DNA of 64,000 nt from Alphaproteobacteria bacterium (GTDB lineage: Bacteria; Pseudomonadota; Alphaproteobacteria; UBA8366; GCA-2717185), in contig JAPKDL010000001.1 of NCBI GenBank assembly GCA_028822585.1, positions 65,407-129,406 on the forward strand. The letters run 5' to 3'. Under the pieces are notes generated by a model. It was not told the origin of the DNA. It searched no databases and saw only the letters and a program-made list of their open reading frames with translations. This document shows positions 9,630-33,788 of this stretch, piece after piece. How positions within the stretch are numbered: position 1 is the first letter of the stretch; the number at the start of each line of letters is the position of its first letter. The position numbers and the translations under genes were made by a program.

Positions 9630-9749
9630 ATGTCCGATACAAAAGCCCTGCGTCAGGACGTGAAGGCGACGATTTTGATCCCACCCATCTTTATCCGCGC
9701 CGCTGATGGCAATCGGGCGGGGTTGAGGGGGGGCTCGTTGATTAAATGA
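9630..9749 (+). CDS. Hypothetical 39 aa ORF translationally coupled to the carboxyltransferase gene
   Basis: ATG 9630 is preceded by GGAG about 9 nt upstream. The translation is MSDTKALRQDVKATILIPPIFIRAADGNRAGLRGGSLIK. Its TGA (9747-9749) overlaps the ATG (9746-9748) of the next gene. It is too short for the ORF track and I recognise no family. Confidence 0.25.
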   Translation: MSDTKALRQDVKATILIPPIFIRAADGNRAGLRGGSLIK

Positions 9750-11308: not shown

Positions 11309-11335
11309 TTTAAACCGCGAACGCGCTAGGCCCTG

Positions 11336-12874
11336 TTAGGGGTCAATCCGATGTTTCCAGGCGTAGGTTTGGTTGCAACGGCATCGTTCCAAGGCGTCGA
11401 GGATACGGTAACGCGTTTCCGCTGGGGCGATCACGTCATCGATCAATCCCAGGCCCGCCGCTGCGTAGGCGCTTGATTCGACAACGATTTTCTTTCGAAT
11501 GTCATCGCGCATCGCGTCGGGGTCGTCCGCCTTGGCGATGTCGCGGCCATGCACTAATTCAATGCCTGCTTCGGGGCCCATGACATCGAAGCGCGCCGTC
11601 GGCCAACTGACAAGTAAGTCCGGTTCCACGGCCCGTCCGCCAAGCGCAATATATGCCAGGCCAATCGCTTTTCGCAGCACAATGGTGATTTTGGGTGTAG
11701 TCGCGCCGATAATTGAATTCAACAATCGGCCGGTAAGGCTCACCATCCGGCGTCGTTCAATATCTGGGCCGACCATGAAGCCGGGACAATCCATCAAAGA
11801 AATTATGGGAATGTGGAACGCATCACAAAGGTCGATGAACTTGCGCAATTTTTCCACGCCTTTGTCATCAATTGTACCGGCGCGATGGAGTGGTTGATTG
11901 GCGATGATTCCAACCGAATACCCGTCCATTCGGGCGAACGCGGTCATCGAATTCCGCGCATAATCTCGTTTCATTTCAAAATAATCGCCGCCATCAACGA
12001 GCAGTCCAATCAATGTGCGCATGTCGTAGGCACGACGGTGATTATCTGGAACCAATTGTTCGATGTCCGCGCGTCCCGCCGCGCTGTCAATCTTTGCAGG
12101 TTGTGGTTCCGCCCGAGGTGACGCTTCGTTACAGCTCGACGGTAGATAGGAGAGGAATTTTTTGATCGCGTTCATGCAATCCAGTTCAGTTTTGGCCAAC
12201 AGGTCGGCTTGTCCGGTTTCAATCGCCGCCATCTCGCTGCCGCCAATTTCTTCGTTCGTGACGTCGAGACCAATTCCAACTTTAACAACGGGCGCGCCCG
12301 ACATACCCAAAAATCCCGTTCCTTTCACGATGGGGGAGAAATCGGATTGAACAGCTGTAAACGAAGGCCCTCCGAAGCAAGGGCCGAGCGCCGCAGCGAC
12401 TTGCGGTATGCGTCCCGACATCTTGAAATGGTCACCGAAGCGGTATCCAAGGCCTGCCGCCGTCGCGCCATAGGCTTCTTGCACGCGCGCCGCGCCGGCT
12501 TCCATCAGGCCAATAAAAGGCTTGTGATGCTTTAAGGCGAGAGCGCGCACACGAGCGTTTTTTACTTCGGCGACCCGGCCCCGTGTGCCTGCCATTACCG
12601 TGCCGTCATCAGCCGTGATGTATACAACTCGCCCATCAATTTTACCTGACCCCGCCAACATGCCATCTGCGGGCGTGCGGTCTTTAAGGTCATCATGTTG
12701 GCTGTGCGCCAAGAGTCCGATTTCGACAAAGGATCCAGGATCAAGCAAATGGTCAAGGCGTTCGCGTGCGGTCAGTTTTCCGCGGTCATGGGCTTTTTTG
12801 ATATTTTCAGCACCGCCCATTTTGCGGGACTGTTCACGCTGCGTCACAAGTATTTGTATTGTGTCGTCGTCCAT
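11336..12874 (-). CDS. Acyl-CoA carboxylase carboxyltransferase (beta) subunit family protein (paralogue)
   Basis: Contains TARERLDHLLDPGSFVEIG and has the same architecture as 9746..11308. The start was moved from the TTG at 12892 to ATG 12874, which has GGGGAG about 8 nt upstream. Confidence 0.9.
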   Translation of the reverse strand: MDDDTIQILVTQREQSRKMGGAENIKKAHDRGKLTARERLDHLLDPGSFVEIGLLAHSQHDDLKDRTPADGMLAGSGKIDGRVVYITADDGTVMAGTRGRVAEVKNARVRALALKHHKPFIGLMEAGAARVQEAYGATAAGLGYRFGDHFKMSGRIPQVAAALGPCFGGPSFTAVQSDFSPIVKGTGFLGMSGAPVVKVGIGLDVTNEEIGGSEMAAIETGQADLLAKTELDCMNAIKKFLSYLPSSCNEASPRAEPQPAKIDSAAGRADIEQLVPDNHRRAYDMRTLIGLLVDGGDYFEMKRDYARNSMTAFARMDGYSVGIIANQPLHRAGTIDDKGVEKLRKFIDLCDAFHIPIISLMDCPGFMVGPDIERRRMVSLTGRLLNSIIGATTPKITIVLRKAIGLAYIALGGRAVEPDLLVSWPTARFDVMGPEAGIELVHGRDIAKADDPDAMRDDIRKKIVVESSAYAAAGLGLIDDVIAPAETRYRILDALERCRCNQTYAWKHRIDP

Positions 12875-13027
12875 TGAATTTGCTCCCCGCAAGATGCGCT
12901 GGTGTTGTTAAGCGTCAATTCGACGTAATTCTCTTACGTATGGGTAACTGGTGCACGGGTATATTGTATGGCCGGTGGGATTCAGGCACGATCATGCGTC
13001 GTTAGGCAAATGTGATGGGAAATTTTT

Positions 13028-14137
13028 GTGAAAGCACTGGTAATTGGCGGGACGGGACCGACCGGACCATATTTAGTAAATGGCCTTATCGAACAAGGTT
13101 ACGACGTTTCGATCATGCATCGCGGAACCCATGACAGTGATGAAATTCCGCGCAGCGTTGAACGCATTATTGGTGACCCGCATTTTCGCGAAACCCTGCG
13201 CGATGCACTTCAAGGGCGAACTTTTGATCTGATTATCGCGACCTATGGCCGGATTCGATATATTGCGGAAGTCGCCGGAGAGCACACCGAACGTCTGATC
13301 ACTGTCGGCGGCGCGCCATGTTATCGCGGCATGTTGCAACCGGACGCATTGTTTCCCGCGGGCATGGAAATACCCTTGACCGAGGACGCGCCCAAGGTGG
13401 CGAGTGAGGAAGAGTTCCGCTTCGGATATTTGGTTCGAATTTCCGAGGAAGCCGTGATGGACGGCCATGCGGAAGGTCGCTTCAGCGCCACCCATTTTCG
13501 CTATCCCACGGTTTATGGGCCGCGGCAAATAACGCCAAAAATTTGGGCGATCATGCGCCGGTTTATGGATAGGCGTCCCTATATTGTATTGCCAGATGGC
13601 GGTTTAAGCCTTGTGACGCGCGGGTATTCGGAAAATGTCGCACATGCGGTTCTGTTGGCGGCGCAGCAGCCCGATATCGCTGGTGGACAAATTTATAATT
13701 GCGGCGATGAGCAACAACTCACCTTGGCGCAATGGATTGAGGTCGTGGGGCAGGAGATGGGGGGCACCATAGAGGTGATTGGCGTGCCCGATAAATATGC
13801 TTATTCGTCGCGCACCTTGATGATGTTTGATGGACCGTCGCATCATCAAATATTTGACCTCTTCAAGATCAAATCGGAACTCGGTTATCGGGACAAAGTG
13901 GCACCTTTGGAAGCGGTGGCGCGTACGGTGCGTTGGTATCAAGAAAATCCGCCTGACGATAATTCGGAAATCATAACGGACCTTGCAGGTCATTATCGCA
14001 CGGAGGATGCTATTGCGGAGGTTTACCGCGACGCTTGCGAGCGTCTAGCGGCGATTGAGCATGTGGAGCGGGATTTTCACCACCCCTACCCACATCCGAA
14101 AAAGCCGGGGTTAGACCGTGACCACCGGGCGCGATAA
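13028..14137 (+). CDS. NAD-dependent epimerase/dehydratase family protein
   Basis: GTG start. The N-terminus MKALVIGGTGPTGPYLV carries the GxxGxxG Rossmann motif. The 369 aa length fits an extended SDR. Confidence 0.8.
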   Translation: MKALVIGGTGPTGPYLVNGLIEQGYDVSIMHRGTHDSDEIPRSVERIIGDPHFRETLRDALQGRTFDLIIATYGRIRYIAEVAGEHTERLITVGGAPCYRGMLQPDALFPAGMEIPLTEDAPKVASEEEFRFGYLVRISEEAVMDGHAEGRFSATHFRYPTVYGPRQITPKIWAIMRRFMDRRPYIVLPDGGLSLVTRGYSENVAHAVLLAAQQPDIAGGQIYNCGDEQQLTLAQWIEVVGQEMGGTIEVIGVPDKYAYSSRTLMMFDGPSHHQIFDLFKIKSELGYRDKVAPLEAVARTVRWYQENPPDDNSEIITDLAGHYRTEDAIAEVYRDACERLAAIEHVERDFHHPYPHPKKPGLDRDHRAR

Positions 14138-14149
14138 AATGCGTCGCGC

Positions 14150-14974
14150 TTAACCTTCGTAGTTCCGGATAATGCGTGTATAGGATTGCTTGTTCGCGCC
14201 ATCGACCAGAAGCGATTCGCCGTTCACGTAGGAGGCCCGCGCCGACGCAAGATACACAATTGTCTCCGCAACCTGCCAAGCGTCGCCCCATGGACCAGAT
14301 TCGGCAATAATTTTTTCGCGCCGGGCCAATGCTATTGTTTCGTCATAATCGTTGCCGGCGGCCTCGCGTTCCCATTTTTCGAAACGGTCCGGGGTGATCA
14401 CGACGCCGGGGACGACGCAATTGACCCGGATGTTCTGAGGTCGGAGTTCCTCGGCGAGGTCAGTGGTGAAGCGTAGTTCCGCCGCCTTGGCGGGACCAGT
14501 GCAGGTTGACCCTGGCGGATTGGCTGCTTGGTAGGCAGTGCGGCCCGAGACATTGATGATAACGCCGCCCCCGGCGTCGATCATTATCGGCACAATGCGC
14601 TGAGAGAGGCGGAACTGGGCAAAGAAATTTATCGCCATGCCATACTCTAAATCTTCGTCAGTCACTTCAAGGAATGGTTTATACGTGCCCGTCCCTGCAT
14701 TGTTAACCAGGATATCCACGCGCCCGAAGCGGTCCTTCGCAAACGCGGTGACGCGGTCGAGGTCGGCGGGAATTGCGACGTCGGCTGCGATGGCGTCGAC
14801 CTCGCCGCTACCTTCCGCCTTAATTTCCCGTACGGCGTTCGCCAGTGCTGCCTCGCCACGCGCCGTGATGAGGACTCGTGCGCCTTCGCGCGCCAGCAAG
14901 TGCGCCGTCGCTAGTCCGATGCCTTTGCTGCCGCCAGTGACGACAGCGACTTTGTTTCGAAGTTCCAAATCCAT
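14150..14974 (-). CDS. SDR family oxidoreductase
   Basis: VTGGSKGIGLATA and NNAG motifs. It is the last gene of the minus-strand operon. Confidence 0.85.
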   Translation of the reverse strand: MDLELRNKVAVVTGGSKGIGLATAHLLAREGARVLITARGEAALANAVREIKAEGSGEVDAIAADVAIPADLDRVTAFAKDRFGRVDILVNNAGTGTYKPFLEVTDEDLEYGMAINFFAQFRLSQRIVPIMIDAGGGVIINVSGRTAYQAANPPGSTCTGPAKAAELRFTTDLAEELRPQNIRVNCVVPGVVITPDRFEKWEREAAGNDYDETIALARREKIIAESGPWGDAWQVAETIVYLASARASYVNGESLLVDGANKQSYTRIIRNYEG

Positions 14975-14985
14975 GGCGTTTCCAG

Positions 14986-15795
14986 TCAGGCTGCGGGGAG
15001 CATCGTCTGGGCACGTTCCCGCAGATCGTCGGCGATACGCGACGGTCGTCGCGCGTCAAGGTCAAGTTGAACGCCGAATTGACTAAGACCCGCGATATCG
15101 GTGCCGGTCTCCGCATTGCGCATCCGATGATAGAGCCGCATGGAAGAGCCGCCTAATTGCGCCACGCAGCTTTCGACGTCGATCATATCACCGGGCTTGG
15201 CCTGGCTGTGGAAGGTGAGTTGAAATTCAAAGGTTGAAATCCCTGTCCGGTTTTTTGTCATGTATTCCGGCGTCATGCCGAAGGCCGACAGGATGAAACT
15301 GTTGGCGGTTGAAAATCGACGGATATAGCCCGGCAGCGATAAATTTCCCGCCCAATCCGATTCGGTCGTACGCGGCATATCGCAGCACGATGGGAACCAA
15401 CTCGCGTCGTCGCCTGGTACGGATCGTTCCTCGCGCCCATCGCCATCCCAGGCGACCGGTGTGCCCGATAATGTCACGCCCGCCAAGGTTTGTTGCATTG
15501 TCGTACACAAGGTTCCGGTTTCGGCATTGAAAAGTTTGTGGGCGATGGTCGGCGTGTCGCCAGCATTGATCAGCGCTGTTTCAATTCGATAAATGTCACG
15601 GTCACGCAGTTCGTTCTTGTAATGCGTCAGGCCCTCTGTCGTGCGGGATTTGGCGGGGTCAACACCGGACTGATGCAGGAATCGCCACGTCGCGGCTTCG
15701 AATTTTTCATAATAATAGGCGACGGTGAAATGCTCGGTTGCATCTACTTCCCAGGGAGAGACATCGCCACGGAAGGTTTCGCTATATCCGTTCAC
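14986..15795 (-). CDS. Thioesterase-like protein (tandem hotdog fold)
   Basis: The 269 aa length suggests two hotdog repeats. The N-terminal WEVDATEHFTVAYYYEKFEAATWRF resembles 4HBT/acyl-CoA thioesterase family proteins. The assignment is from family resemblance only. Confidence 0.6.
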   Translation of the reverse strand: MNGYSETFRGDVSPWEVDATEHFTVAYYYEKFEAATWRFLHQSGVDPAKSRTTEGLTHYKNELRDRDIYRIETALINAGDTPTIAHKLFNAETGTLCTTMQQTLAGVTLSGTPVAWDGDGREERSVPGDDASWFPSCCDMPRTTESDWAGNLSLPGYIRRFSTANSFILSAFGMTPEYMTKNRTGISTFEFQLTFHSQAKPGDMIDVESCVAQLGGSSMRLYHRMRNAETGTDIAGLSQFGVQLDLDARRPSRIADDLRERAQTMLPAA

Positions 15796-15847
15796 GGAAA
15801 TTCCTTTGGTTGGTTAAATTTGTGCAGGTTCGGTTTATTCTGCCAAT

Positions 15848-16714
15848 TTATTCTGCGATGTCACGGTGATGCGCTTGGTCGAAATCCCACACGTCCTTAA
15901 AACCAAGCTCGCCAGAGAGTGTCATAAAGTCGCGTAGCGGGACGTCAAGGTCAAGAGACGCGCCGGTGCGCTTCAACGTTCCATAAACCGAATGCAAAGC
16001 TTCTGCGGCTGCCATGAACCCGGTGCCGGGATAGATTGCAATCTGGTAGCCAAGGTCAATATACGCCTGCTTGCTAAGCACGGGCGTACTGCCGCCATCG
16101 ACGACATTCACCAACAGCGGCGCGTCGAAGCTTGCGCAGATCTTCTCCATTTCCGCTTCGGATTCGGGCGATTCGATAAACAAGATATCCGCGCCAGCTT
16201 CGGCAAATGCCTCGCCACGTCGTAACGCTTCATCCAGGCCGTAATTGGTGCGCGCGTCGGTTCGTGCGACAATCAAAAAATCCGAAGAATTTCTTGTTTC
16301 GACCGCGACTTCAATCTTCTGCGCCATGTCTTCGATGGGAATCACCTTGCGACCCGGCGTGTGTCCGCATTTCTTTGGAAATTCTTGATCTTCAATCTGA
16401 ATACCCGCCGCCCCGGCGTCTTCGTAACCCCGAACAGTGTGCTGAACATTCAGCAGGCCCCCATAACCCGTGTCGCCGTCCGCGATGAACGGTGTTGTCA
16501 GCACATCCGCCATCATCTTCACGCGGCCGACCATGTCGGTGTAGCTGGCGATGCCCGCGTCCGGCATCCCCATATGCGACGCCACCGCGCCATAACCCGT
16601 CATGTACAGCATGTCGAAACCAAATGGGTCCGCCATGCGCGCTGAAATTCCGTCGAATATTCCTGGCGCGACCACAAGTTCTCCTTGGCGCAACATTTTT
16701 TTTACACGGGTCAT
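15848..16714 (-). CDS. Isocitrate lyase/PEP mutase superfamily enzyme (methylisocitrate-lyase, oxaloacetate-decarboxylase or dimethylmalate-lyase like)
   Basis: GDTGYGG and the superfamily signature EDQEFPKKCGH (K-K-C-G-H). 288 aa. Confidence 0.85.
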   Translation of the reverse strand: MTRVKKMLRQGELVVAPGIFDGISARMADPFGFDMLYMTGYGAVASHMGMPDAGIASYTDMVGRVKMMADVLTTPFIADGDTGYGGLLNVQHTVRGYEDAGAAGIQIEDQEFPKKCGHTPGRKVIPIEDMAQKIEVAVETRNSSDFLIVARTDARTNYGLDEALRRGEAFAEAGADILFIESPESEAEMEKICASFDAPLLVNVVDGGSTPVLSKQAYIDLGYQIAIYPGTGFMAAAEALHSVYGTLKRTGASLDLDVPLRDFMTLSGELGFKDVWDFDQAHHRDIAE

Positions 16715-16738
16715 TTAACCGTCTCCTCTTTTACTGCG

Positions 16739-17746
16739 TTATGATTCTTTGAAATAAGGCATGACATCCTGGGCGAACCATTCAATTTGTTCGTTCATTT
16801 CGCTCAGTGTATTGGCGGGGATCATCAAGGCGGAGCAATGGTCCACACCGATAGATTTTAGCTTTTCGATCTTTCCGATCACGGTCTGTGGCGACCCGAC
16901 AAGATTGGCGATGACCTGGTGGCTCAGGTCGCGACCTGTATAGGCCAGAGACTGCCGGTGCGCGACGAGACCGCTTTTCATGTATTTGGCCTCCGCCTCC
17001 TCATCCGTGTTGGCGAGCAACATAGAGAATTGCGGGGCGATTTCGACGGCGTTGCGGGGGCGTCCAAGTTCTTCTGTGCGATCTTTTAAAATGCGAATTC
17101 GCTCTTCCATCTCTGCGAACGGGCGCCATCCGGCTAGCCAGCCATGGCCATATTTCGCCGCGCGTTCGACCGTCGCCATATTGTGCCCGCCGATATAAAG
17201 CGGGTAGGGGTTCTGCTTTGGTTTTGGAAACATTTTTATGTTGTCAAAGGCATAATGGTCGCCGTCATGGCTTGCGTTAGGTTCGGTCATGAGTTTCAGA
17301 AAGGCTTCGATGCCCTCGTCTAACAGGTCGCCGCGCCGGGCACCTTTTAGCCGGGGCGCCATGGCATTAAACTCTTCGCGATACGCCCCCAACCCCACCG
17401 CGAGGATGAAACGGCCTCCGGACAATTGATCCAGTGTCGCCACCTGTTTGGCCAGATAAACCGGTTCGCGCATCGGCATGACCAACAGCGCGGTGCCGAC
17501 AATAAGCCGCTCTGTCGCCTGTGCGCACATCGCCAGCGTGATCAACGGTTCATAGAAATTCGGGGCCTTTCCAGGGTGAAGTTCGGTGACATATTGCTGG
17601 GTTGTAATGTGGTCGTTGCCCCACACCGAATGGTATCCCACCCGCTCGCAAAGTTGAGCTTGTGCAACAAAGTCCTGAGGTTCGGCGAACGGGATCGGGT
17701 ACATGACGCCTTCAAACCCGGTCGAGAGGCAAATACTGAATTTCAT
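16739..17746 (-). CDS. LLM-class (luciferase-like) flavin/F420-dependent oxidoreductase
   Basis: 335 aa with typical LLM features (GYHSVWGNDH, LDQLSGGRFILAVGLG). Confidence 0.8.
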   Translation of the reverse strand: MKFSICLSTGFEGVMYPIPFAEPQDFVAQAQLCERVGYHSVWGNDHITTQQYVTELHPGKAPNFYEPLITLAMCAQATERLIVGTALLVMPMREPVYLAKQVATLDQLSGGRFILAVGLGAYREEFNAMAPRLKGARRGDLLDEGIEAFLKLMTEPNASHDGDHYAFDNIKMFPKPKQNPYPLYIGGHNMATVERAAKYGHGWLAGWRPFAEMEERIRILKDRTEELGRPRNAVEIAPQFSMLLANTDEEAEAKYMKSGLVAHRQSLAYTGRDLSHQVIANLVGSPQTVIGKIEKLKSIGVDHCSALMIPANTLSEMNEQIEWFAQDVMPYFKES

Positions 17747-17757
17747 CGGCTAAGTCC

Positions 17758-18741
17758 TCATGCTGGGGCGTTAAGCGCGGCCAAGACTATCGCGATTTGT
17801 TCGGGGGTCCGCATTGACGCGAGGACCGCATTGTCGAGACCAGCGGCGTGATAGGCGGCATTTCGAGCGCGGAACATTTCAGGAGAACCGGCGGCGGCGT
17901 GACGTTCGATGATTTCATCACTAATCAGCCTATCCGCGGTGTCTGCGTTGTCGGCGTTAAACGCGTCATTCACCGCTGCTTGATCCAGGCGGCTGCCTGC
18001 GAGTTCAAGATTATGACGGTGATGTTTGCCGCGCAAGGTCGTCGCCAGAACGCGCCGTACACGGTCGAAGGCCGTTTTTCTATCGTCGGCGACGGCGGCG
18101 TAAACGAGCCCATTACGTTGAAAATTCTCTGGCGTCCCGTGTGCAAAAACCTGACTGAGGCTCCAACGGACAAATTCAACCGAGGCCCCCGCAGATAACA
18201 GCACGCCATCGGCATGCGTCCCGGCGAGCTGTAGCATTTTGGGGCCAGACGCGGCCAGCAATAGTGGAATATCTCGCCGACCGGAACTGAGCGCCCGGTC
18301 TAACGCCTTAAATCTCTTGCCTTCTTGATGCACCGTTTCGCCTGCGAACAAGGCACGGCAAATTTGTAAAGATTCGCGCATTGGTCCTAAAGGCGCAGGA
18401 GTCTCAACGCCGACATCGACCAGGTCGGCGGGCGCGCCAACGCCAAGACACAGGGAAATTCGGTCTGGGAAAAATTCATCAATGGTCGCAGCCGCCATGG
18501 CGGCGTGAACCGGGTGTACCAAATACGGGCTGATCGCGACCAATGTAATTTTCAAATGAGGATGGCGATCCATCAAGACGCTGGCGGTAACGATTGGGTC
18601 GCGTTGGAATAAATGACAGGCGAGCCAGATCGAATCAACGCCGCCTTCGACGGCGGCCTGGGCTTTCGCAAGAACCGCCTCGACGGGTTCGCGACCGTCA
18701 AAGGAAACGCTGGGTCCGATTGGATTTCTAGGTTTGGGCAA
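17758..18741 (-). CDS. LLM-class oxidoreductase (methylene-H4MPT-reductase-like subgroup)
   Basis: 327 aa with VDSIWLACHLF and an LCLGVG-type motif. The TTG start at 18741 overlaps the 2Fe-2S subunit stop by 14 nt. No in-frame ATG or GTG is available upstream of residue 57. Confidence 0.75.
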   Translation of the reverse strand: MPKPRNPIGPSVSFDGREPVEAVLAKAQAAVEGGVDSIWLACHLFQRDPIVTASVLMDRHPHLKITLVAISPYLVHPVHAAMAAATIDEFFPDRISLCLGVGAPADLVDVGVETPAPLGPMRESLQICRALFAGETVHQEGKRFKALDRALSSGRRDIPLLLAASGPKMLQLAGTHADGVLLSAGASVEFVRWSLSQVFAHGTPENFQRNGLVYAAVADDRKTAFDRVRRVLATTLRGKHHRHNLELAGSRLDQAAVNDAFNADNADTADRLISDEIIERHAAAGSPEMFRARNAAYHAAGLDNAVLASMRTPEQIAIVLAALNAPA

Positions 18742-19198
18742 GGCTTTCCACCGCTTCTATGATTTTTTGGTAGCCTGTGCAGCGACAAATGTTTCCGCTC
18801 AAATGATGTTCGATTTCTGCTCGACTGGGCGTTGGGTTCGAGAACAACAGCGCTTTTGTCGCCAGGATCATTCCGGGGGTGCAGAAGCCGCATTGGAGGG
18901 CACCAAATTCAAGGAAAGCTTCCTGGACTGGGTCGAGGTTGTCCCGGTCGCCAAGGCCTTCGATTGTCACGACATCGGCGCCATCGGCGTCGACGGCCAG
19001 CATCGTGCAGCTACTTACGGGGTGGTCGCCCACCAAAACAGTACAGGCACCGCATATCTGCATATCGCAGGAGCGTTTGACGCCGCGCAAATTCTGCGCA
19101 TCCCGCAGAAAATCGATGAGCAATGTGTGGGCTTCGACCAATGCGTTGGTTTTTTCGCCATTGAGCGTCATCGAGATATTATGCGTGGATGAGGTCAC
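18728..19198 (-). CDS. Molybdenum hydroxylase small subunit, (2Fe-2S)-binding
   Basis: Two cluster motifs are present: C-x4-C-G-A-C (CDMQICGACTV) and CGFCTPGMI...CRCTGY. 156 aa. Confidence 0.9.
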   Translation of the reverse strand: MTSSTHNISMTLNGEKTNALVEAHTLLIDFLRDAQNLRGVKRSCDMQICGACTVLVGDHPVSSCTMLAVDADGADVVTIEGLGDRDNLDPVQEAFLEFGALQCGFCTPGMILATKALLFSNPTPSRAEIEHHLSGNICRCTGYQKIIEAVESLAQT

Positions 19199-20052
19199 GG
19201 GGTCCCCTTTTTATCAGCCGCTGCTGTAATGGCGCGCCGGGTCACGGTCTCGGCTAAATGCCGCCGGTAATCCGCGCTAGCGTCTTCATCACTAACGATA
19301 TCGAGCGTGCCAATATCCGTTGCAATTGCATGCGTTAGCCCGTCGTCGAGACTGGCGGGGTTGGCGGAAATATAGCGCTCTGTGGTTGGCAGTGACGTGG
19401 GATGCGTCCCTATGCATCCGACCCAGATTCGTGGCTTATTGGCGGGGTCTTTTGGAATGGCTGCGGCTGCCCCCGCGATGGTGCGATGTCCAAAGACGAC
19501 CCGTTCATAACGTATGTTGCATGCCGTCACGGGTATTTCGATCCGCAGGAGCAATTCGTCTGGCGCCCTTAGAGTCTCAAGTGCACCGATTATGAACTGG
19601 CTTGCTGATATGTGGTGTTCGCCACGCGCAGATTTCAGAACTAATTGCGCGTCCAGCGCGGCGAGCAGCACTGGTGGGTCGGCGCGCGGTTCGGCGAAAC
19701 ATAAGTTACCGCCAATCGTTCCGGACGTTCGAACGCGAGCGTTGGCGATGGAGCTGCAAAGGGCGCCAAGCGCCGGGACAGCGCCAGAAATGATGGCGTC
19801 ATCGGCGATGGTCGCGTGGGTGGCGAGGGCACCCAGGGACACAATGTCGTCACGGCGGATAATGGTTCGAAGTTCGGGAATGCGCTTGAGATCGACAAGG
19901 TGCTGGTAATCTGCAAAGTGCATTTTCATCGCCAGAAGCAACTCGGTGCCGCCCGCGTAAGGAGAAACGTCGTCGCTATAGCGCGCCATGAGCGAAACCG
20001 CGTCATCAAGCGTTGTCGGGCGATGATAGGTGAACGGCCTAGGTAGCATCAT
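19195..20052 (-). CDS. Molybdenum hydroxylase medium subunit, FAD-binding
   Basis: The CoxM/XdhB-like FAD-binding domain includes AGGTELL. The start was trimmed to the MM at 20052/20049, which overlaps the large-subunit stop by 11-14 nt. The stop overlaps the small-subunit start by 4 nt. Confidence 0.85.
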   Translation of the reverse strand: MMLPRPFTYHRPTTLDDAVSLMARYSDDVSPYAGGTELLLAMKMHFADYQHLVDLKRIPELRTIIRRDDIVSLGALATHATIADDAIISGAVPALGALCSSIANARVRTSGTIGGNLCFAEPRADPPVLLAALDAQLVLKSARGEHHISASQFIIGALETLRAPDELLLRIEIPVTACNIRYERVVFGHRTIAGAAAAIPKDPANKPRIWVGCIGTHPTSLPTTERYISANPASLDDGLTHAIATDIGTLDIVSDEDASADYRRHLAETVTRRAITAAADKKGTP

Positions 20053-22318
20053 CGCCCCGCTTGCGCAGCGCGCGCCAGATACGTTCGGGGGTGAGCGGTA
20101 GGTCCCGGATACGGATCCCGTACCGCCGCGCCAACGCGTTCGCAATGGCGGGCGCTACCGGTAATATACCGCCTTCACCCATACCTTTGGCACCCATGGG
20201 ACCTGGGCCGTCGCCGTTTTCGATTAATACGGTGTGGGCGCGCTTAGCAATATCACCAATGGCGGGTACCCGGTAGGCGATGGGCGTCGCATTCACGGGT
20301 TGGCCATCGACGTAATCCAGACGTTCGAAAAGCGCGTGCCCCAAGCCCTGTACGGCGGCGCCCTCCTCCTGGCCTTCCGCGCCACTGGGGTTGATGGCGT
20401 GACCGACATCCGCCACACCTACATAGCGAGTGACCGACAATGTTCCGATTTCTTGATCAACGTCGACGTCGCAGGCGCCGACGGCGGTTTCCCAAAATAG
20501 CGGCGATTTTTTGAAGTCGCTGCCGTCGCGCGTTGGGGTAACCATGGCGCGACCCACGACCTCGCCGGAATCAACGCCGAATGCCCTGTGGTACACATCC
20601 TGGAACGGCAGGAATTCATCGCCATGAGCGACGCCGCCTGGGACGAGCCGAAGGTCGTTTGGCGCGCCGTCGAAGACTGATGACGCTAGCGCCAGAATTT
20701 GATCGCTGGCGTCGCGTGCCGCGTCTTCCACTGCAAGGCCCATGATCACCGTGGATCGGCTGGCACCCGTGCCCCAGTCAAATGGTGTTGTTGAGGTATC
20801 GGGGTTTGCAATCTGAATAGAGTTGGGGTTTTGATTTAACATCTTTGCGACGACTTCGCGCAAAACCGTTCGGACACCCTGGCCAATATCAACGCTGTTG
20901 GACATGACTATAATCGAGCCATCGACAAGAACCCGGACCAACGCGCCCCCAAGAGGGAGAATGCCGGGATCTGTTGCCGCGACGGCAATACCGGCAGCGG
21001 CGCCATCGCCTAGGTTCATTATCGCTTGGTCCGCACGCCCAATCATGTCGCCGATATCGGCGTCGAGAGGGCGCAATGTGTCTAAAATTTCGCCACCGCG
21101 CGGCAGCAGATTGCGACGCCGCAGTTCCACTGGGTCAATACCCATTGCGTCGGCGATCTCATCCATTTGCGATTCTGTCGCCCATACAGCTTGGGGGCCG
21201 CCAATGGATCGGAAGGCGGCGCCCGGTACCGTGTTCGTGTAGACGGCCTTGGCTTCGATTTCGAGGTTCGCGATGTCATAGGGGCCGATGATGCGGTGCG
21301 CCGCCTTCGCCGCAACGGCAGGCCCTGTGTCCGCATAAGCGCCACCATCCAATAAGATTGTGGCGCGTTTGGACAAAATTTTACCCGTCTTGTCTAAGGA
21401 TGTGTGCAGCGTCATTGTTGCGCCCAGGCGGCGACAGGTAAGCATCGATTCTGCCAACGTTAACGTCACGCGAACTGGGCGTCCGGCCTTGCGCGCGGCA
21501 GCGACCACCAGCGGTTCAATTTTGACCGAAGCCTTGCCGCCAAATCCGCCACCGACAAAGGGAACGATGATCCGGATGTTAGCAACGGCAATTCCAAAAA
21601 CTCGGGACAGTACTTTTTGCACCGCCGTGGGGGATTGCGCGCCCGACCATACGGTCAGGTCATCGCCCTCAAAGGCGGCGACAACGCTGTGTGGTTCAAG
21701 CGCGAAATGGGACACGCCAGGAAAGGTATAGGTATGTTCAAAAATATGCGCTGCGTCGCACTCAGCAGCGGTGGCGTCGCCGGTGCTGACTCCGAATTTC
21801 TGAAATATATTCGTGCCAGCGACGGGTTTGGCCTGACCGGTAAAGTAGAAATCGGCGATGGCGTCGTGAACATCGTGCAACACAGGCGCGTCCGGTGCGA
21901 TGGCCGCTGCGGCGGTGTCGACGAAGGGTAAATGTTCGTAGTCAATGTCGATTAAATCAAGCGCAGCTTCGGCAATCTCCAGCGTTTCCGCCACCACCAA
22001 CGCGACCGGTTCCCCGACGTAGCGGACTTTGTCAATCGCGATTACCGGGCGGTCGTTGAGAAATAGCCCCCAATGAATTTGCGCCAGCGTGGCCATATCT
22101 TCGCCAGTCAGGATCGTGACAACACCGTCAAGCGCGCTGGCTTCTGTGACATCCAGGCGTGTGATTCGGGCATGCGGGACCGCGCTGCGCAGAATGCGGC
22201 CATGCGCCATGCGAGGCACACGAATGTCGCTCGCATACACCGCGCCGCCCGTGACCTTATCGATGAGGTCGGCGCGCGCGGTGTTGTTGTCCGGTGGTGA
22301 TTCCTTCCTCACGTCCAA
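20039..22318 (-). CDS. Xanthine dehydrogenase/aldehyde oxidase family molybdopterin-binding large subunit
   Basis: 759 aa. The N-terminus has DKVTGGAVYASDI, followed by GGGFGGK and AAFRSIGGPQ motifs typical of the family. The start is TTG 22318 or GTG 22312. Confidence 0.9.
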   Translation of the reverse strand: MDVRKESPPDNNTARADLIDKVTGGAVYASDIRVPRMAHGRILRSAVPHARITRLDVTEASALDGVVTILTGEDMATLAQIHWGLFLNDRPVIAIDKVRYVGEPVALVVAETLEIAEAALDLIDIDYEHLPFVDTAAAAIAPDAPVLHDVHDAIADFYFTGQAKPVAGTNIFQKFGVSTGDATAAECDAAHIFEHTYTFPGVSHFALEPHSVVAAFEGDDLTVWSGAQSPTAVQKVLSRVFGIAVANIRIIVPFVGGGFGGKASVKIEPLVVAAARKAGRPVRVTLTLAESMLTCRRLGATMTLHTSLDKTGKILSKRATILLDGGAYADTGPAVAAKAAHRIIGPYDIANLEIEAKAVYTNTVPGAAFRSIGGPQAVWATESQMDEIADAMGIDPVELRRRNLLPRGGEILDTLRPLDADIGDMIGRADQAIMNLGDGAAAGIAVAATDPGILPLGGALVRVLVDGSIIVMSNSVDIGQGVRTVLREVVAKMLNQNPNSIQIANPDTSTTPFDWGTGASRSTVIMGLAVEDAARDASDQILALASSVFDGAPNDLRLVPGGVAHGDEFLPFQDVYHRAFGVDSGEVVGRAMVTPTRDGSDFKKSPLFWETAVGACDVDVDQEIGTLSVTRYVGVADVGHAINPSGAEGQEEGAAVQGLGHALFERLDYVDGQPVNATPIAYRVPAIGDIAKRAHTVLIENGDGPGPMGAKGMGEGGILPVAPAIANALARRYGIRIRDLPLTPERIWRALRKRGDDAT

Positions 22319-22401
22319 TCGGCGCCGTCGATGAGCTCCAACATGATCAGCACCGTTGCCGACTCAATCATGTCGGGCACCGCGTAGCCTTCTTCTGTCA
22401 T
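22309..22401 (-). CDS. Hypothetical acidic 30 aa ORF upstream of, and overlapping, the Mo-hydroxylase large-subunit start
   Basis: ATG 22401 has AAGGGG 7 nt upstream. The translation is MTEEGYAVPDMIESATVLIMLELIDGADWT. The stop TGA 22309-22311 overlaps the TTG/GTG start region of the next gene. It is below the ORF-track length cutoff. Confidence 0.3.
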   Translation of the reverse strand: MTEEGYAVPDMIESATVLIMLELIDGADWT

Positions 22402-22475
22402 GTTCTACCCCTTGATGTCCGTTTAGCCAAAATTTGTTTTAGGGATCATGGAGAAAATGTTGATCAATCGAATTC

Positions 22476-23087
22476 TTATGCAGTCTTTTTTCCCGTTAGC
22501 GCGAACCGCATTAATTCGAACCGGTCGTTGCCGAAATACATATCGTCGCTATTCACGAAAAATGTTGGGGATCCGAAACCGCCTCGTTCTATGATTTCAT
22601 CGGTGTTCACGAATAGCTGTTTTTTGATTTCATCCATCCCGATGCGTTCAATGAACGCATCCCCGTCCATACCGACGGAAATTGCGATCTCCTTGAGTTC
22701 CGATTCTTGCGAGATGTCGCGTTTATCCGTCCAATAGGCCTTGAAGCAAGCGCCGGAATATGGACCGATTTTGTCTTCTTCGATGGCGACGAACGCACCC
22801 CGTAACGATTTTACGCTGTTGAGCGGCGAGACCGCCGTTGGGTTTTTTTCAATGTCCAGGTATCTCGCCCAGTCCGCCAGATCCTTTTTATAGTAATTGT
22901 CTTTCGGAGGAATTGGGTTGTCCCGGCGGTTGTAAACGCTGGGGTTTACCTTGTTGAAAACACCGCCCACTAAAAATGGCTTCCAAATTAGTTCGGCGTC
23001 ATTGTCGGTGCAGAATGTTTCAATTCGGCTGTAGGCGTAATAGGTCCAGGGGCTAGAGTAATCGAAAAAAAATTCAACAGTGGCCAT
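22476..23087 (-). CDS. 2-hydroxychromene-2-carboxylate isomerase family protein (DsbA-like / kappa-GST fold)
   Basis: The N-terminus MATVEFFFDYSSPWTYYA carries the SPW(S/T)Y motif in place of CxxC. The C-terminal FGSPTFFV...FGNDRF is typical of the family. Confidence 0.8.
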   Translation of the reverse strand: MATVEFFFDYSSPWTYYAYSRIETFCTDNDAELIWKPFLVGGVFNKVNPSVYNRRDNPIPPKDNYYKKDLADWARYLDIEKNPTAVSPLNSVKSLRGAFVAIEEDKIGPYSGACFKAYWTDKRDISQESELKEIAISVGMDGDAFIERIGMDEIKKQLFVNTDEIIERGGFGSPTFFVNSDDMYFGNDRFELMRFALTGKKTA

Positions 23088-23287
23088 TATCTATATCTTT
23101 CTGAGGCTTAGAGGGTTTTATCGGAACAGCGTGTGCGTTAACTATATAGTAACCTATGGTGTGAGATTAAAAAGGTGGCGTTCAATCAACTCTATATGAA
23201 GTTGAATTTTGAGAGTCTACGACATTTTCATAACATTTGGCCTGCATTTGCAGGTAATTTTTCTTTGAGCGATAGATTTCGTCTCCG

Positions 23288-24181
23288 CTAAGACGCGGCG
23301 GCCAGCGAATCACCGGTTTCTCTCACTGTAGGACCCGTTCCCGCGACCGTGGTACGGCGCATGACGCGCCGGTGTTTGGTGGTGTCGAAGGGAGTGCCGC
23401 GATGCAGGATGCAGCGATTGTCCCAAATGATAAAATCGAACTGTCGCCATTTATGGACATACACAAATTCGGTTTGCGTCGATTTATCCACGAGATCGCG
23501 TAAAAGCTGGCGGCCTTTTTCTTCCGGCCACCCGATAATGTGCGATGCGTGCGAGCCGCTATAGAAATTTTTTCGCCCCGTTGACGGGTTTGTTCGTACT
23601 ACCGCGTGGCGAACCGGGGGTACTTCCTTCAAGGCTTGTTTGGGTGCTTTATAGCCTTTCACTAGGGCGCGCGAATGCCCGTAATTATGTTCCGCGACCA
23701 ATCCATCCAATTGGAGTCGTTCTGCTGCCGGAAGTAAGTCATAGGCGGTTCGGCAGGAGGCGAATTGCGTATCAGCGCCAATGGGTGGCACTTCGCGCCC
23801 GGACAGCATGGAACAATAGGCGGGCGTTGGCTTGAACGAACTGTCGGTATGCCACATTTCATTGCCGCTATTCGACTTCAGGCGTGTATGACCTTTCGGA
23901 AAAATTTCATTCGTACGGTAATCGATGTTGGTGATGTTCGCCACTGGGACGCCGCCATCGCCTTCGGGTTTGTAAACTGTTGTTTCCAAGGTGCCGAAAC
24001 GGGCGCTAAACGCCGTTTGCGTTTCGTCGTCGAAACGTTGGTTGCGGAACACCAGGACCGAATACTTGTCCAGCGCAGCCTTAATTTCAGACACCACTGT
24101 GTCATCGACATTTGCTATCAGGTTGAGGCTGGTAATTTCAGCCCCAAAATAATCTGTTAGATTTTGAATGGTCAACGCCAT
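23288..24181 (-). CDS. TauD/TfdA family Fe(II)/2-oxoglutarate-dependent dioxygenase (paralogue 1)
   Basis: WHTDSSF (HxD iron ligands) and the C-terminal WDNRCILHRG. The start was trimmed to ATG 24181 (MALTIQNLTDYFGAEI). Confidence 0.85.
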   Translation of the reverse strand: MALTIQNLTDYFGAEITSLNLIANVDDTVVSEIKAALDKYSVLVFRNQRFDDETQTAFSARFGTLETTVYKPEGDGGVPVANITNIDYRTNEIFPKGHTRLKSNSGNEMWHTDSSFKPTPAYCSMLSGREVPPIGADTQFASCRTAYDLLPAAERLQLDGLVAEHNYGHSRALVKGYKAPKQALKEVPPVRHAVVRTNPSTGRKNFYSGSHASHIIGWPEEKGRQLLRDLVDKSTQTEFVYVHKWRQFDFIIWDNRCILHRGTPFDTTKHRRVMRRTTVAGTGPTVRETGDSLAAAS

Positions 24182-24262
24182 GGCTGCGTCTCCTCTCGAT
24201 TCCGTTCCAGATGTGGGAATTGAAGCAGGCGACGGTGCTTGATGCAAGCCAGAGTACCTAGT

Positions 24263-24308
24263 GGTTTGATTGAAAGGCTTGGTGTCCAAGAATTTTGTGA
24301 ATCAAACC
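24263..24308. promoter_or_regulatory. 9 bp inverted repeat GGTTTGATT-N28-AATCAAACC in a divergent control region
   Basis: Read directly from the sequence. It lies between the divergently oriented TauD gene (start 24181) and the Prx-like gene (start 24472). Confidence 0.3.
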
Positions 24309-24340
24309 ATTAACCTATTGATTTGGGGAGCGACTGATCA

Positions 24341-24363
24341 AAACGGATGGGCACCATCCGTTT
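24341..24363. promoter_or_regulatory. Perfect 10 bp stem / 3 nt loop hairpin or palindrome AAACGGATGG-GCA-CCATCCGTTT
   Basis: Read directly from the sequence, about 110 nt upstream of the Prx-like ATG. It could be an operator palindrome or a 5' leader structure. Confidence 0.3.
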
Positions 24364-24471
24364 CGGTATTGCCACTCGATCAAGCCATCGTTGCGAAGGT
24401 GGGATCAACGGGCCATACTGCCCTTCATCGTCGCCATGGCATTCAGCGCAAACCTCACAAGGAAATTTTAA

Positions 24472-24942
24472 ATGTCCCCAAAACTTGGAATTGAGGATGC
24501 GTTTCCCGATATTACACTCAACCTCGTCGACGGTGGGACGCTAAGTCTGCCGGTCGGGCTGGATGCAAATTATAAGGTGGTCTTGTTTTATCGGGGACAT
24601 TGGTGACCTTTCTGTCGCCGGCAGTTAGTCGGCTTCGAAAAGTTGAAAGCGGAATTTGATGCGTTGAATACGAAGATTGTCACAGCCAGTATCGATCCAC
24701 TGGATAAGGCGCAAGAAGTGGCGAACGATGTGTCGTTTCCTGTTGGTTACGGCGCGACTCGCGAAATTGGCGATGCGATAGGCGCGTTTTGGGAAGAGCG
24801 GCGAGGATTGATTCAACCGTCTGAATTCATCATCGGCGCGGATAACAAGATTGTCACCAGTAGCTACAGCGATGGCCCGCTGGCGCGGATGGATGCTGCG
24901 GATGTTATCAAACTTATCAAGCTGTACGAGTCGCGAAAATAA
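24472..24942 (+). CDS. Peroxiredoxin-like (AhpC/TSA, PRX-like2) protein with an in-frame TGA at the redox Cys position; candidate selenoprotein (UxxC)
   Basis: ATG 24472 has AAGGAA upstream. The frame reads ...YKVVLFYRGHW[TGA 24604-24606]PFCRRQLVGFEKLKAEFDALNTKIVTASIDPLDKAQEV...KLYESRK. The track ORF 24643..24942 is in the same frame (24643-24472=171). The TGA replaces the first Cys of the conserved WCP(F/Y)C motif, and no other lesion is present. Confidence 0.6.
24608..24642 (+). promoter_or_regulatory. Candidate bacterial SECIS-like stem-loop immediately 3' of the in-frame UGA
   Basis: Manual fold. Lower stem: 24608/24642, then 24609-24612 paired with 24637-24640 (A24641 bulged). 24614 pairs with 24636. 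A 2x2 internal loop follows. Upper stem: 24617-24622 paired with 24628-24633 (GCCGGC/GUCGGC, one G-U pair). The apical loop is AGUUA (24623-24627), about 20 nt from the UGA. Confidence 0.4.
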
Positions 24943-24987
24943 GGCCGGCCATAGCTGGATTAAATACGAAGCGAACGAGATTTTGGT

Positions 24988-25818
24988 ATGGAGATAACGC
25001 AACTGGCCAATGGCTTTGCGGTCGAAATTGGTGGGGTCAATTTAGCCGAGACGCTGAACGACGCTGCCTTCGATGCCATCAAGGCGTTGTGGATGGAAAA
25101 TCGCGTTGTAGTGTTTCGGCATCAAACACTTAACGATGACGGTTTGGTCGCGTTCGCCGCGCGTTTTGGGCCCCTGTTTGTCCATGCGCAATCATCGCTT
25201 CTATCGTCGCGGCGTAAAGAGGTGATGGAGCTTTCCAATCTGGAAGATGTGGAAAGACCCGTCACCCATGAACTCGACTGGCATACGGATCAGAGCTATA
25301 CGGCGCAACCGGTGTTTGGTACCATTCTTTACGGATTGGTGACGCCGGATGAAGGCGGTGAAACTCATTTCGCCGATCTCGCTGGTGCCTATGTTTCCCT
25401 GCCGGAAGAATTGCGGACGCGGATTGAGGACGCCACGGCTGTTTATTCCGCTGAACCGCGTCCAAAGGTAAGGGAGAAACCGCTTAACGCGGAAGAACGC
25501 TCCCGCATTCCCGATTGTGTTCACCCTATCGTTCGGACCCACCCTTATTTAAACCGGAAATCGATTTATCTTAGCCCGTTGCACATTCGAACCATTGGGA
25601 ATTTACCGGAACCGGACAGTCTAAGTCTGTTAGGTGAATTGATTGAACACGCTGCGCAACCGGCACATCTTTACCGGCATCGTTGGTCGGTTGGGGATGT
25701 GGTCATATGGGACAATACTTCTGTCATGCATCGCCGCACATCGTTTCCATCTCATGAACGCCGCCACCTAAAACGGACGGGGTTCTATTTGCCCGACGAA
25801 TTGGCGATACCTGTTTAA
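24988..25818 (+). CDS. TauD/TfdA family Fe(II)/2-oxoglutarate-dependent dioxygenase (paralogue 2)
   Basis: WHTDQSY (HxD) and the C-terminal WDNTSVMHRR. 276 aa. It starts 45 nt after the Prx-like stop. Confidence 0.9.
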   Translation: MEITQLANGFAVEIGGVNLAETLNDAAFDAIKALWMENRVVVFRHQTLNDDGLVAFAARFGPLFVHAQSSLLSSRRKEVMELSNLEDVERPVTHELDWHTDQSYTAQPVFGTILYGLVTPDEGGETHFADLAGAYVSLPEELRTRIEDATAVYSAEPRPKVREKPLNAEERSRIPDCVHPIVRTHPYLNRKSIYLSPLHIRTIGNLPEPDSLSLLGELIEHAAQPAHLYRHRWSVGDVVIWDNTSVMHRRTSFPSHERRHLKRTGFYLPDELAIPV

Positions 25819-25889
25819 TTTCACCTGTGAAACATCCAGGGAGAATTTAAATAGACGACCTCTTTAAATTATACGGTCCCCGATATCGG

Positions 25890-28256: not shown

Positions 28257-28258
28257 GT

Positions 28259-29179: not shown

Positions 29180-29193
29180 GGTTTATCTCCAGT

Positions 29194-29979: not shown

Positions 29980-30019
29980 GGGTATTCCTCTCGATTTCGA
30001 AATTAGACTAAGGTTTAGG

Positions 30020-33590: not shown

Positions 33591-33788
33591 GAAGCTTGGG
33601 CCTTGTTGTTCGGGTTGTTGACGGGCGAACCGAGATCCGACCTTTGTCGATGACTTATACACGCGGCAACAATTTGTACATCGCCCGCGTCCCTGATTGC
33701 TGCAAGGTCTCGACTTTTGTGCCTCAGCGGCGTAATTCACGCACATATACATGAAGCGAATTTGGTTTGCGACGGGAAGGCACCATAC

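Follow-up and report, generated by a model that had tools for sequence, protein, structure and literature searches.

Molybdenum hydroxylase cassette with paired luciferase-like oxidoreductases, joined in one marine alphaproteobacterial lineage to an independent lyase–thioesterase pair

The locus described here lies in a 64,000-nucleotide stretch of contig JAPKDL010000001.1 (positions 65,407–129,406, forward strand) of the Alphaproteobacteria bacterium assembly GCA_028822585.1; this whole stretch is referred to below as the window, and all positions are those of the window. Open-reading-frame (ORF) listing and translation of the minus strand at 14150–22401 gave eight solid reading frames. They encode the large (L), medium (M) and small (S) subunits of a molybdenum hydroxylase of the xanthine dehydrogenase (XDH) family, two luciferase-like oxidoreductases (LLM1 and LLM2), a lyase of the isocitrate lyase/phosphoenolpyruvate mutase (ICL/PEP-mutase) superfamily, a double-hotdog thioesterase and a short-chain dehydrogenase/reductase (SDR). 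Comparison with other genomes divides this block into two evolutionarily independent units, L-M-S-LLM1-LLM2 (unit 1) and the lyase–hotdog pair (unit 2). All domain assignments of the eight genes are above Pfam gathering scores, and the gene content and domain calls of an earlier note on this DNA agree with them. The features are as follows.

14150–14974, minus strand: SDR-fold oxidoreductase (Pfam adh_short)
14986–15795, minus strand: double (tandem) hotdog thioesterase (Pfam 4HBT_2 twice)
15848–16714, minus strand: ICL/PEP-mutase-family C–C lyase (Pfam PEP_mutase and ICL)
16739–17746, minus strand: LLM2, TIGR03619-family luciferase-like oxidoreductase (above the TIGR03619 cutoff)
17758–18741, minus strand: LLM1, Mer-like luciferase-like oxidoreductase (Pfam Bac_luciferase), with a 14-nt overlap with S
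18728–19198, minus strand: S, small subunit with two [2Fe-2S] clusters (Pfam Fer2_2 and Fer2)
19195–20052, minus strand: M, medium subunit binding flavin adenine dinucleotide (FAD), 285 residues from the ATG at 20052 (Pfam FAD_binding_5 and CO_deh_flav_C)
20039–22312, minus strand: L, molybdopterin-binding large subunit of an XDH-family hydroxylase (Pfam Ald_Xan_dh_C, MoCoBD_1 and MoCoBD_2)
22309–22401, minus strand: 30-codon ORF upstream of L, doubtful as a gene, with the Shine–Dalgarno-like sequence AAGGGG
22476–23087, minus strand: DSBA-like thioredoxin-fold gene (Pfam DSBA), ∼160 nt upstream of L

Counted from the SDR gene towards L, the seven junctions of the eight genes consist of gaps of 11, 52, 24 and 11 nt followed by overlaps of 14, 4 and 14 nt; these are precisely the values in the earlier note. 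That note counted nine minus-strand frames, of which eight stand as genes; the ninth is the unconserved 30-codon ORF. The L protein comprises 757 residues from a GTG at 22312 (an alternative TTG start is present at 22318), and the TGA stop of the short ORF overlaps this GTG as GTGA. Gene callers also predicted the short ORF on six independent ENA assemblies. A tblastn comparison with all fetched loci gave no homologue outside this species, to which the ORF is confined, and it was rejected as a conserved leader peptide on this ground; it may serve as a leader for translational coupling or be an artefact. The DSBA-like gene is not kept beside the cassette in other lineages and its membership in the unit is uncertain; a TauD-family gene is also located upstream of the block on the same strand. 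The 3′ end of the unit is fixed by the downstream neighbour (13028–14137, plus strand), which is convergent with the block. Promoter and terminator scans of the locus performed no better than on shuffled sequence, so that it is the close packing of the genes that suggests units 1 and 2 are probably co-transcribed here. Rfam gave no match across the whole window at gathering scores, nor for 22200–25100 at E ≤ 1, and riboswitches or other RNA elements were rejected on this basis. The block is identical in six ENA and three JGI contigs of the same species, and marine-metagenome contigs from ENA, JGI, NCBI and Tara carry the same or almost the same sequence.

The three hydroxylase subunits have the make-up of a complete XDH-family enzyme, with molybdenum-cofactor domains and the a/b hammerhead in L, an FAD subunit and a subunit carrying two [2Fe-2S] clusters. 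S contains the cysteine patterns C-x4-C-x2-C-x11-C and C-x2-C-x31-C-x-C, and L contains the GGGFGGK motif and the glutamate of a C-terminal GMGEGG. L falls below every NCBIfam equivalog cutoff, and its top matches are 4-hydroxybenzoyl-CoA reductase (4-HBCR), XDH and heterocycle hydroxylases. The best-scoring characterized relative, both in NCBIfam and in the PDB (1rm6, 276 bits), is the 4-HBCR of Thauera, and the presence of a thioesterase gene in the block might be a hint that the substrate is a coenzyme A (CoA) thioester. 4-HBCR was nevertheless rejected: the alpha, beta and gamma models score 451/994, 96/404 and 170/258 bits (score/cutoff), M has no cysteine cluster and hence no 4-HBCR-type [4Fe-4S] insertion, and no CoA ligase is present. 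Aerobic CO dehydrogenase of form I was rejected because the loop reads AAFRSIGGPQ and not AYXCSFR, CoxL scores 266/991 bits and neither CoxG nor XdhC is encoded in the window. For XDH itself (419/780 bits), GGGFGGK is followed by Ala and not by the Glu that we take to be equivalent to bovine Glu802. PaoABC and glyceraldehyde dehydrogenase are far below their NCBIfam cutoffs and fail the motif checks. The tblastn searches of the window for XdhC and CoxG homologues were negative, which bears out the earlier note on the absence of an XdhC-type maturation gene; CoxG is also absent from the marine clade described next.

Relatives of L form four clades that are ∼55–60% identical to one another: a marine clade (70–83% identical to L of the window), a Hoeflea/Flavimaribacter clade (60%), a soil clade linked to LLM genes (55–58%; Rhodopseudomonas, Afipia, Xanthobacteraceae, Ferrovibrio, Ramlibacter and Burkholderiales) and a Bradyrhizobium clade of nicotinate-type enzymes (56%). 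The cassette of unit 1 also delimits an unnamed and widespread clade of molybdenum hydroxylases, found in at least 38 fetched species genomes and in marine metagenome-assembled genomes, for which the current annotation is only 'xanthine dehydrogenase family protein'.

LLM1 and LLM2 are distinct proteins (23% identity over a partial alignment). LLM2 scores 200.1 bits against the 166.9-bit cutoff of TIGR03619 ('F420-dependent LLM'), and its orthologue in R. palustris scores 189.9 bits, with the reservation that the label of this family derives from phylogenetic profiling and not from assays; close homologues at JGI are labelled 'probable F420-dependent oxidoreductase'. LLM1 is below all NCBIfam cutoffs (best Mer, 133/276 bits), with nearly all of its matches being of the F420 class. 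All 11 of its PDB sequence matches are F420-dependent enzymes or an unassigned LLM, the best being Mer structures. Among the PDB matches of the two LLMs are F420-dependent alcohol dehydrogenase, Fgd and hydroxymycolic acid dehydrogenase. A search for annotated plasmid-borne copies of LLM2 at E ≤ 1e-60 found none.

The lyase retains the catalytic KKCGH motif, which places it, by sequence, among the lyase-type members of its superfamily, in the C–C lyase branch. Its top PDB relatives are 4iqd, petal death protein, 2,3-dimethylmalate lyase (3fa3) and oxaloacetate acetylhydrolase. It scores below the cutoffs for PrpB and for carboxyphosphoenolpyruvate (CPEP) mutase; PrpB methylisocitrate lyase was rejected (252/354 and 203/353 bits), with no prp genes nearby. 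The hotdog protein (269 residues) is a tandem-hotdog thioesterase with two 4HBT_2 domains. It has no match in the PDB by sequence; with its AlphaFold2 (AF2) model (pLDDT 93.9), the top Foldseek matches are acyl carrier protein (ACP) thioesterases (FatA/FatB) and ACOT7/12, at a TM score of ∼0.65 and 12% identity. The family is narrow, with 296 proteins that are mostly marine. Beside these, distant hotdog homologues (∼34%) stand divergently next to S- and M-like XDH-family genes on three soil-metagenome contigs (L172, L175 and L176), a second and independent adjacency of hotdog and molybdenum-enzyme genes. The SDR has the TGxxxGxG and NNAG motifs and keeps the catalytic Ser and Lys, but Thr occupies the position of the catalytic Tyr of the classical Asn-Ser-Tyr-Lys tetrad: in the alignment it has TGPAK where sorbose reductase (3ai1) has YNVTK, and all assemblies of the species share this sequence. 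The SDR may therefore be inactive or mechanistically atypical. No close SDR homologue was found in any other fetched locus.

The distribution of these genes was surveyed by scanning one genome per species with an LLM2 alignment, which gave 80 loci, and by counting neighbours with tblastn. LLM2 is 61–88% identical across the 80 loci. LLM1 is located directly upstream of it in 70 (two further loci end at a contig edge), at least one of L, M and S is directly upstream in 38, and the full order L-M-S-LLM1-LLM2 is found in 31. The reading-frame overlaps in other cassette loci resemble those of the window, and the unvarying pairing of LLM1 with LLM2 suggests either a heteromer or two consecutive steps. 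About 40 species (L051 and L057–L094; Reyranella, Enhydrobacter and others) carry the LLM pair without a molybdenum hydroxylase, so that its function is not strictly dependent on the hydroxylase; in these loci the same threonine-synthase-like pyridoxal-phosphate (PLP) enzyme precedes the pair, and genes for hydantoinase/oxoprolinase A and B and for an ABC transporter are often near.

Neither lyase, hotdog nor SDR stands beside the cassette in any of the 80 loci, including relatives in which L is 80–83% identical. Relatives of L at 82, 70 and 60% identity keep L-M-S-LLM-LLM and lack the lyase, thioesterase and SDR; throughout the marine clade the five genes stand alone between variable flanks. 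Conversely, the lyase–hotdog pair occurs in at least 16 other metagenome loci without molybdenum-enzyme or LLM genes, with the lyase (72–86% identical) directly upstream of the hotdog gene. The neighbourhood there reads Dus, IspA, chromate transporter, divergent SDR, lyase, hotdog, zinc-dependent alcohol dehydrogenase (Zn-ADH) and polyprenyl synthase; of these neighbours, Dus, IspA, Zn-ADH and polyprenyl synthase are absent from the window. The hotdog gene is also found by itself in unrelated contexts. A metagenome scan with the hotdog alignment recovered the complete eight-gene block only on contigs 98–100% identical to the window, and it is restricted to this species and one relative that is ∼91–93% identical. 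Since each unit recurs without the other, units 1 and 2 are evolutionarily independent, and the block is a lineage-specific joining of two modules and not one conserved pathway. The lyase, hotdog and SDR are tied to unit 1 only by their adjacency here and by a 40%-identical PEP-mutase/ICL paralogue that adjoins the cassette in one other marine lineage (L024). The gene-neighbourhood search proposed in the earlier note supports the cassette as a conserved unit and does not support a single pathway unit made up of the whole block. The window serves as a warning that eight neatly packed genes can be a mosaic of recent origin.

Presence of two tandem LLMs had been recognized in the earlier note; what it missed is the main lead, the linkage of this pair to coenzyme F420 biosynthesis genes in many genomes. 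Of the 80 loci, 24 have at least one F420 gene (CofGH, Fno, CofE, CofD or CofC, all identified above NCBIfam equivalog cutoffs) no more than 10 kb from LLM2, and 17 have two or more. With only five such genes per genome, this linkage could not be explained by chance. In Afipia massiliensis, LLM2 is followed by genes for a Flavin_Reduct protein (PF01613), a bifunctional CofGH (1148 versus 1018 bits), an NADPH-dependent F420 reductase (Fno), CofE, CofD and CofC. In R. palustris HaA2 (CP000250.1, 4,988,035–5,009,042), fifteen same-strand genes that overlap or are separated by very short gaps are arranged in the order M24, PALP, TctC, TctB, TctA, L, CoxG, M, S, LLM1, LLM2, Flavin_Reduct, Fno, CofE and CofD, followed by an IclR regulator gene. 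The F420 genes are downstream of the cassette in these two organisms and upstream in Ramlibacter. In soil Alphaproteobacteria and Betaproteobacteria, the cassette and the F420 biosynthesis genes form one operon.

The LLM2 proteins are sufficiently alike across all 80 loci that the cofactor of the soil enzymes is very likely to be the cofactor used here. Taking the family as a whole, we consider it fairly probable that at least one of the two LLMs uses F420; our confidence is lower for the present organism. The cassette resembles the known F420-dependent LLMs (Mer, Adf, Fgd, fHMAD and the TIGR03619 family) in its scores and matches and in that its orthologues share operons with Fno, CofE, CofD and FbiC, but no described member of that group is a fixed heterologous pair coupled to a molybdenum hydroxylase. 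According to a 2021 review, F420-dependent enzymes outside the Actinobacteria, those of Proteobacteria included, had not been studied by then, and why Proteobacteria make F420 was an unanswered question (PMC8498797). The Flavin_Reduct gene comes after LLM2 in the soil and Hoeflea-clade operons (11005–11634 in locus L178, 10969–11634 in L038 and 15504–16139 in L009). In the soil operons it directly precedes the F420 genes, and CofE is a single-domain protein of ∼252 residues. For organisms with a single-domain CofE, a separate unidentified dehydro-F420-0 reductase, 'CofX', has been predicted (Bashiri et al., 2019; PMC6450877). The Flavin_Reduct protein of these operons is a candidate for such a reductase or for the supplier of reduced flavin mononucleotide (FMN) to LLM2.

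Neighbouring genes in other genomes bear on the substrate. The operon of the 56%-identical Bradyrhizobium L (L010), with a MarR regulator gene just upstream of L, continues with a group-A flavin monooxygenase, an isochorismatase, an alpha/beta-hydrolase, NicX (a precomputed Pfam match) and a major facilitator superfamily (MFS) transporter, which is the make-up of an aerobic nicotinate cluster. This L is about as distant from that of the window as is the soil LLM-linked clade. In the soil operons, the cassette is accompanied by TctC-TctB-TctA for the uptake of carboxylates, an M24 hydrolase resembling creatinase, the PLP enzyme resembling threonine synthase and an IclR regulator. A UbiD decarboxylase, a glyoxalase-fold protein and a Rieske oxygenase are also encoded at one marine locus, and a second molybdenum hydroxylase at another. 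The NicX cluster, TctCBA, M24 and the marine-locus neighbours together point to an N-heteroaromatic carboxylate as the probable substrate class. The idea of an N-heterocycle put forward in the earlier note gains support from the NicX-linked homologue.

The nic cluster of Pseudomonas putida KT2440 comprises nicotinate hydroxylase together with NicC, NicX, NicD and NicF. The hydroxylase of the window is likewise a three-subunit L-M-S enzyme of the XDH family, and its identity to the NicX-linked Bradyrhizobium enzyme makes a carboxylated N-heteroaromatic substrate plausible. In contrast to the aerobic nic clusters, the window encodes no NicC, NicX, NicD or NicF, and two LLM genes follow S instead. 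A nic-cluster nicotinate hydroxylase was therefore rejected as an identification, the nic genes being found only beside the Bradyrhizobium homologue. The recently described homarine operon homABCDER encodes an FAD-binding HomA with its partner HomB, a peptidase and an aldehyde dehydrogenase, with no molybdenum hydroxylase or LLM (PMC13236597); it was also rejected, since its enzyme families are different and the block has none of its components. The earlier note stated that the combination matches no described pathway. Full-text literature searches agree, in that no published cluster combining a molybdenum hydroxylase, LLMs and F420 genes was found; the enzyme families are known, and we found no published description of their combination or of the F420 link.

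We propose that unit 1 is a self-contained catabolic cassette. The molybdenum hydroxylase would use water to introduce an oxo group adjacent to the nitrogen in the ring of an N-heteroaromatic carboxylic acid resembling the pyridine carboxylates, and the obligate LLM pair would then transform the resulting pyridone or lactam, most likely by hydride reduction (dearomatization) with reduced F420, which would ready the ring for hydrolytic opening. Unit 2, together with the atypical SDR, would be an independent small-acid/acyl-CoA module docked downstream in this lineage; it may use the product of unit 1 without being an obligatory part of it. For this explanation as a whole (a fusion of two units, with molybdenum hydroxylation, then a probably F420-linked LLM step, and a docked unit 2) we see about an even chance. 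A more specific proposal is put forward tentatively, as a possibility only: the cassette would be the physiological client of F420 in Proteobacteria and would encode an undescribed route that is part oxidative and part reductive, in which the hydroxylase makes a pyridone from an N-heteroaromatic carboxylate and an LLM1/LLM2 heteromer dearomatizes it with F420H2.

Several observations weigh against this explanation, in addition to the provenance of the TIGR03619 label noted above. F420 biosynthesis genes are absent from the 64-kb window and, in every marine-clade locus, from the 10 kb around the cassette. In many soil and Hoeflea loci (at least 13), LLM2 is immediately followed by the Flavin_Reduct gene, an arrangement that suits a two-component FMN system; these include Hoeflea-clade loci with no cof genes nearby. 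The nearest PDB sequences and folds of LLM2 are FMN enzymes, namely SfnG, RslO1 and bacterial luciferase (LuxA); in the comparison with the AF2 model (pLDDT 81, built with database homologues) these folds are only just ahead of Mer and Fgd. At 55–58% identity, the substrate of L could differ from those of nic-type enzymes, and the top-scoring models for S and M are glyceraldehyde dehydrogenase gamma and beta, both far below cutoff. Finally, the gap of 24 nt between LLM2 and the lyase gene suggests, from packing, that the two units are expressed together here, and a functional link between them is possible.

In one alternative the mosaic is accepted and the LLM pair is instead a two-component FMNH2-dependent monooxygenase; we regard this as unlikely. 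RutA/RutF and PyrA/PyrE are two-component LLM monooxygenases that cleave the rings of N-heterocycles, and bacterial luciferase itself is an alpha/beta pair of two LLM subunits. On this model a flavin reductase would feed the pair, the ring would be hydroxylated or oxygenolytically opened after the molybdenum hydroxylase had acted, and the F420 genes of the soil genomes would be there for a different enzyme or for just one LLM of the pair. The luciferase precedent, the FMN enzymes nearest to LLM2 and the Flavin_Reduct genes of the orthologous loci all favour it; the LLM fold is shared and RutA is among the structural neighbours. However, identity to the RutA/PyrA enzymes is ∼20% (30 bits), two different LLMs are always paired here, and no flavin reductase is encoded in or beside the cassette in the window or in the marine clade. 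The cof and Fno genes adjoin the pair in several different arrangements across their 24 loci, LLM2 exceeds the TIGR03619 cutoff and nearly all of the LLM1 family matches are of the F420 type.

The earlier note's reading of the locus, a single dedicated pathway of eight enzymes akin to nicotinate fermentation, is improbable. In Eubacterium barkeri this fermentation employs nicotinate dehydrogenase, 6-hydroxynicotinate reductase, enamidase and further steps, and finally 2,3-dimethylmalate lyase. By analogy, hydroxylation by the molybdenum enzyme and reduction by the LLMs would lead to a branched hydroxy-dicarboxylate to be cleaved by the ICL-like lyase, with the thioesterase and SDR as obligatory components. 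The logic would have the same elements (molybdenum hydroxylation, pyridone reduction, hydrolytic ring opening and a terminal ICL/PEP-mutase-family lyase), and the KKCGH-containing lyase does resemble 3fa3. The eight co-directional genes with gaps of at most 52 nt, the short interval between LLM2 and the lyase, the retention of the block in the ∼91–93% identical relative and the paralogue in L024 are also as such a pathway would predict. Against it stand the absence of the lyase, hotdog and SDR from beside the cassette in every surveyed locus, even those closest in L, and the housekeeping synteny of the lyase–hotdog pair elsewhere; the SDR is without its catalytic Tyr. The reductase step here would fall to an LLM that is probably F420-dependent, in place of the ferredoxin-dependent enzyme of E. 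barkeri, and the window has no genes for an enamidase, 2-(hydroxymethyl)glutarate dehydrogenase, mutase or isomerase. With most of its enzymes absent from the window, the E. barkeri pathway as a whole was rejected.

Quite improbable is an oxidation chain from alcohol through aldehyde to acid, in which the molybdenum enzyme would be a dehydrogenase for aldehydes or other non-heterocycles and the LLMs, like Adf, Fgd or fHMAD, would oxidize alcohols or hydroxy acids with F420 as the acceptor, generating F420H2. The glyceraldehyde dehydrogenase models that top the lists for S and M, and the alcohol, Fgd and hydroxymycolic acid dehydrogenases among the PDB matches of the LLMs, fit such a chain, but those models score far below their cutoffs, L itself matches 4-HBCR, XDH and heterocycle hydroxylases best, a related L clade sits in a NicX-containing cluster and Fno in the soil operons already supplies F420H2 from NADPH. 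The notion that the LLM pair and flavin reductase are accessories of F420 biosynthesis, for example as the dehydro-F420-0 reductase, and stand beside the hydroxylase by chance can almost be dismissed: the single-domain CofE, the predicted CofX (PMC6450877) and the position of Flavin_Reduct between LLM2 and the F420 genes would suit it, but the LLM1-LLM2 pair shows translational coupling to S, more than 50 loci have it with no cof gene in the surrounding 10 kb, and it is present in the marine cassette without cof genes or flavin reductase.

If the more specific proposal of the cassette as the client of F420 is true, its presence in uncultured marine Alphaproteobacteria would imply that F420-dependent catabolism of heterocycles also takes place in the ocean. 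Cultured strains, for example R. palustris HaA2 and Afipia massiliensis DSM 17498, carry the cassette in one operon with F420 genes, a transporter and a regulator, which makes the question of F420 in Proteobacteria directly testable.

The remainder of the window is ordinary chromosome, including genes for the bc1 complex, HemF, NadC and a Bat/MoxR cluster, together with several features that are recorded here. The stretch 23288–31231 is a dense run of three TauD-family 2-oxoglutarate dioxygenases, two MFS transporters, a third LLM (28259–29179; TIGR03619 at 240 bits) and a class II aldolase, and looks like a second catabolic island; a sulfatase is encoded on the other side of the operon at 8042–9502. 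An acyl-CoA dehydrogenase-fold protein (32376–33752, minus strand) scores above the equivalog cutoff for 3-sulfinopropanoyl-CoA desulfinase (650 versus 600 bits), and this family assignment points to a probable role in organosulfur metabolism of the 3-mercaptopropionate/dithiodipropionate type. A caprolactamase-like hydantoinase A/B pair is encoded at 3124–7133 (plus strand); it was rejected as the partner seen beside LLM pairs in other genomes, since the proteins are paralogues with 33 and 29% identity. Two convergent paralogous acyl-CoA carboxyltransferase genes (9746–11308, plus strand, and 11336–12892, minus strand) have no biotin carboxylase or biotin carboxyl carrier protein gene beside them. 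Lastly, a 195-residue ORF at 33955–34542 (plus strand) covers only positions 52–226 of the 348-position isocitrate/isopropylmalate dehydrogenase profile and may be a truncated gene or a pseudogene.

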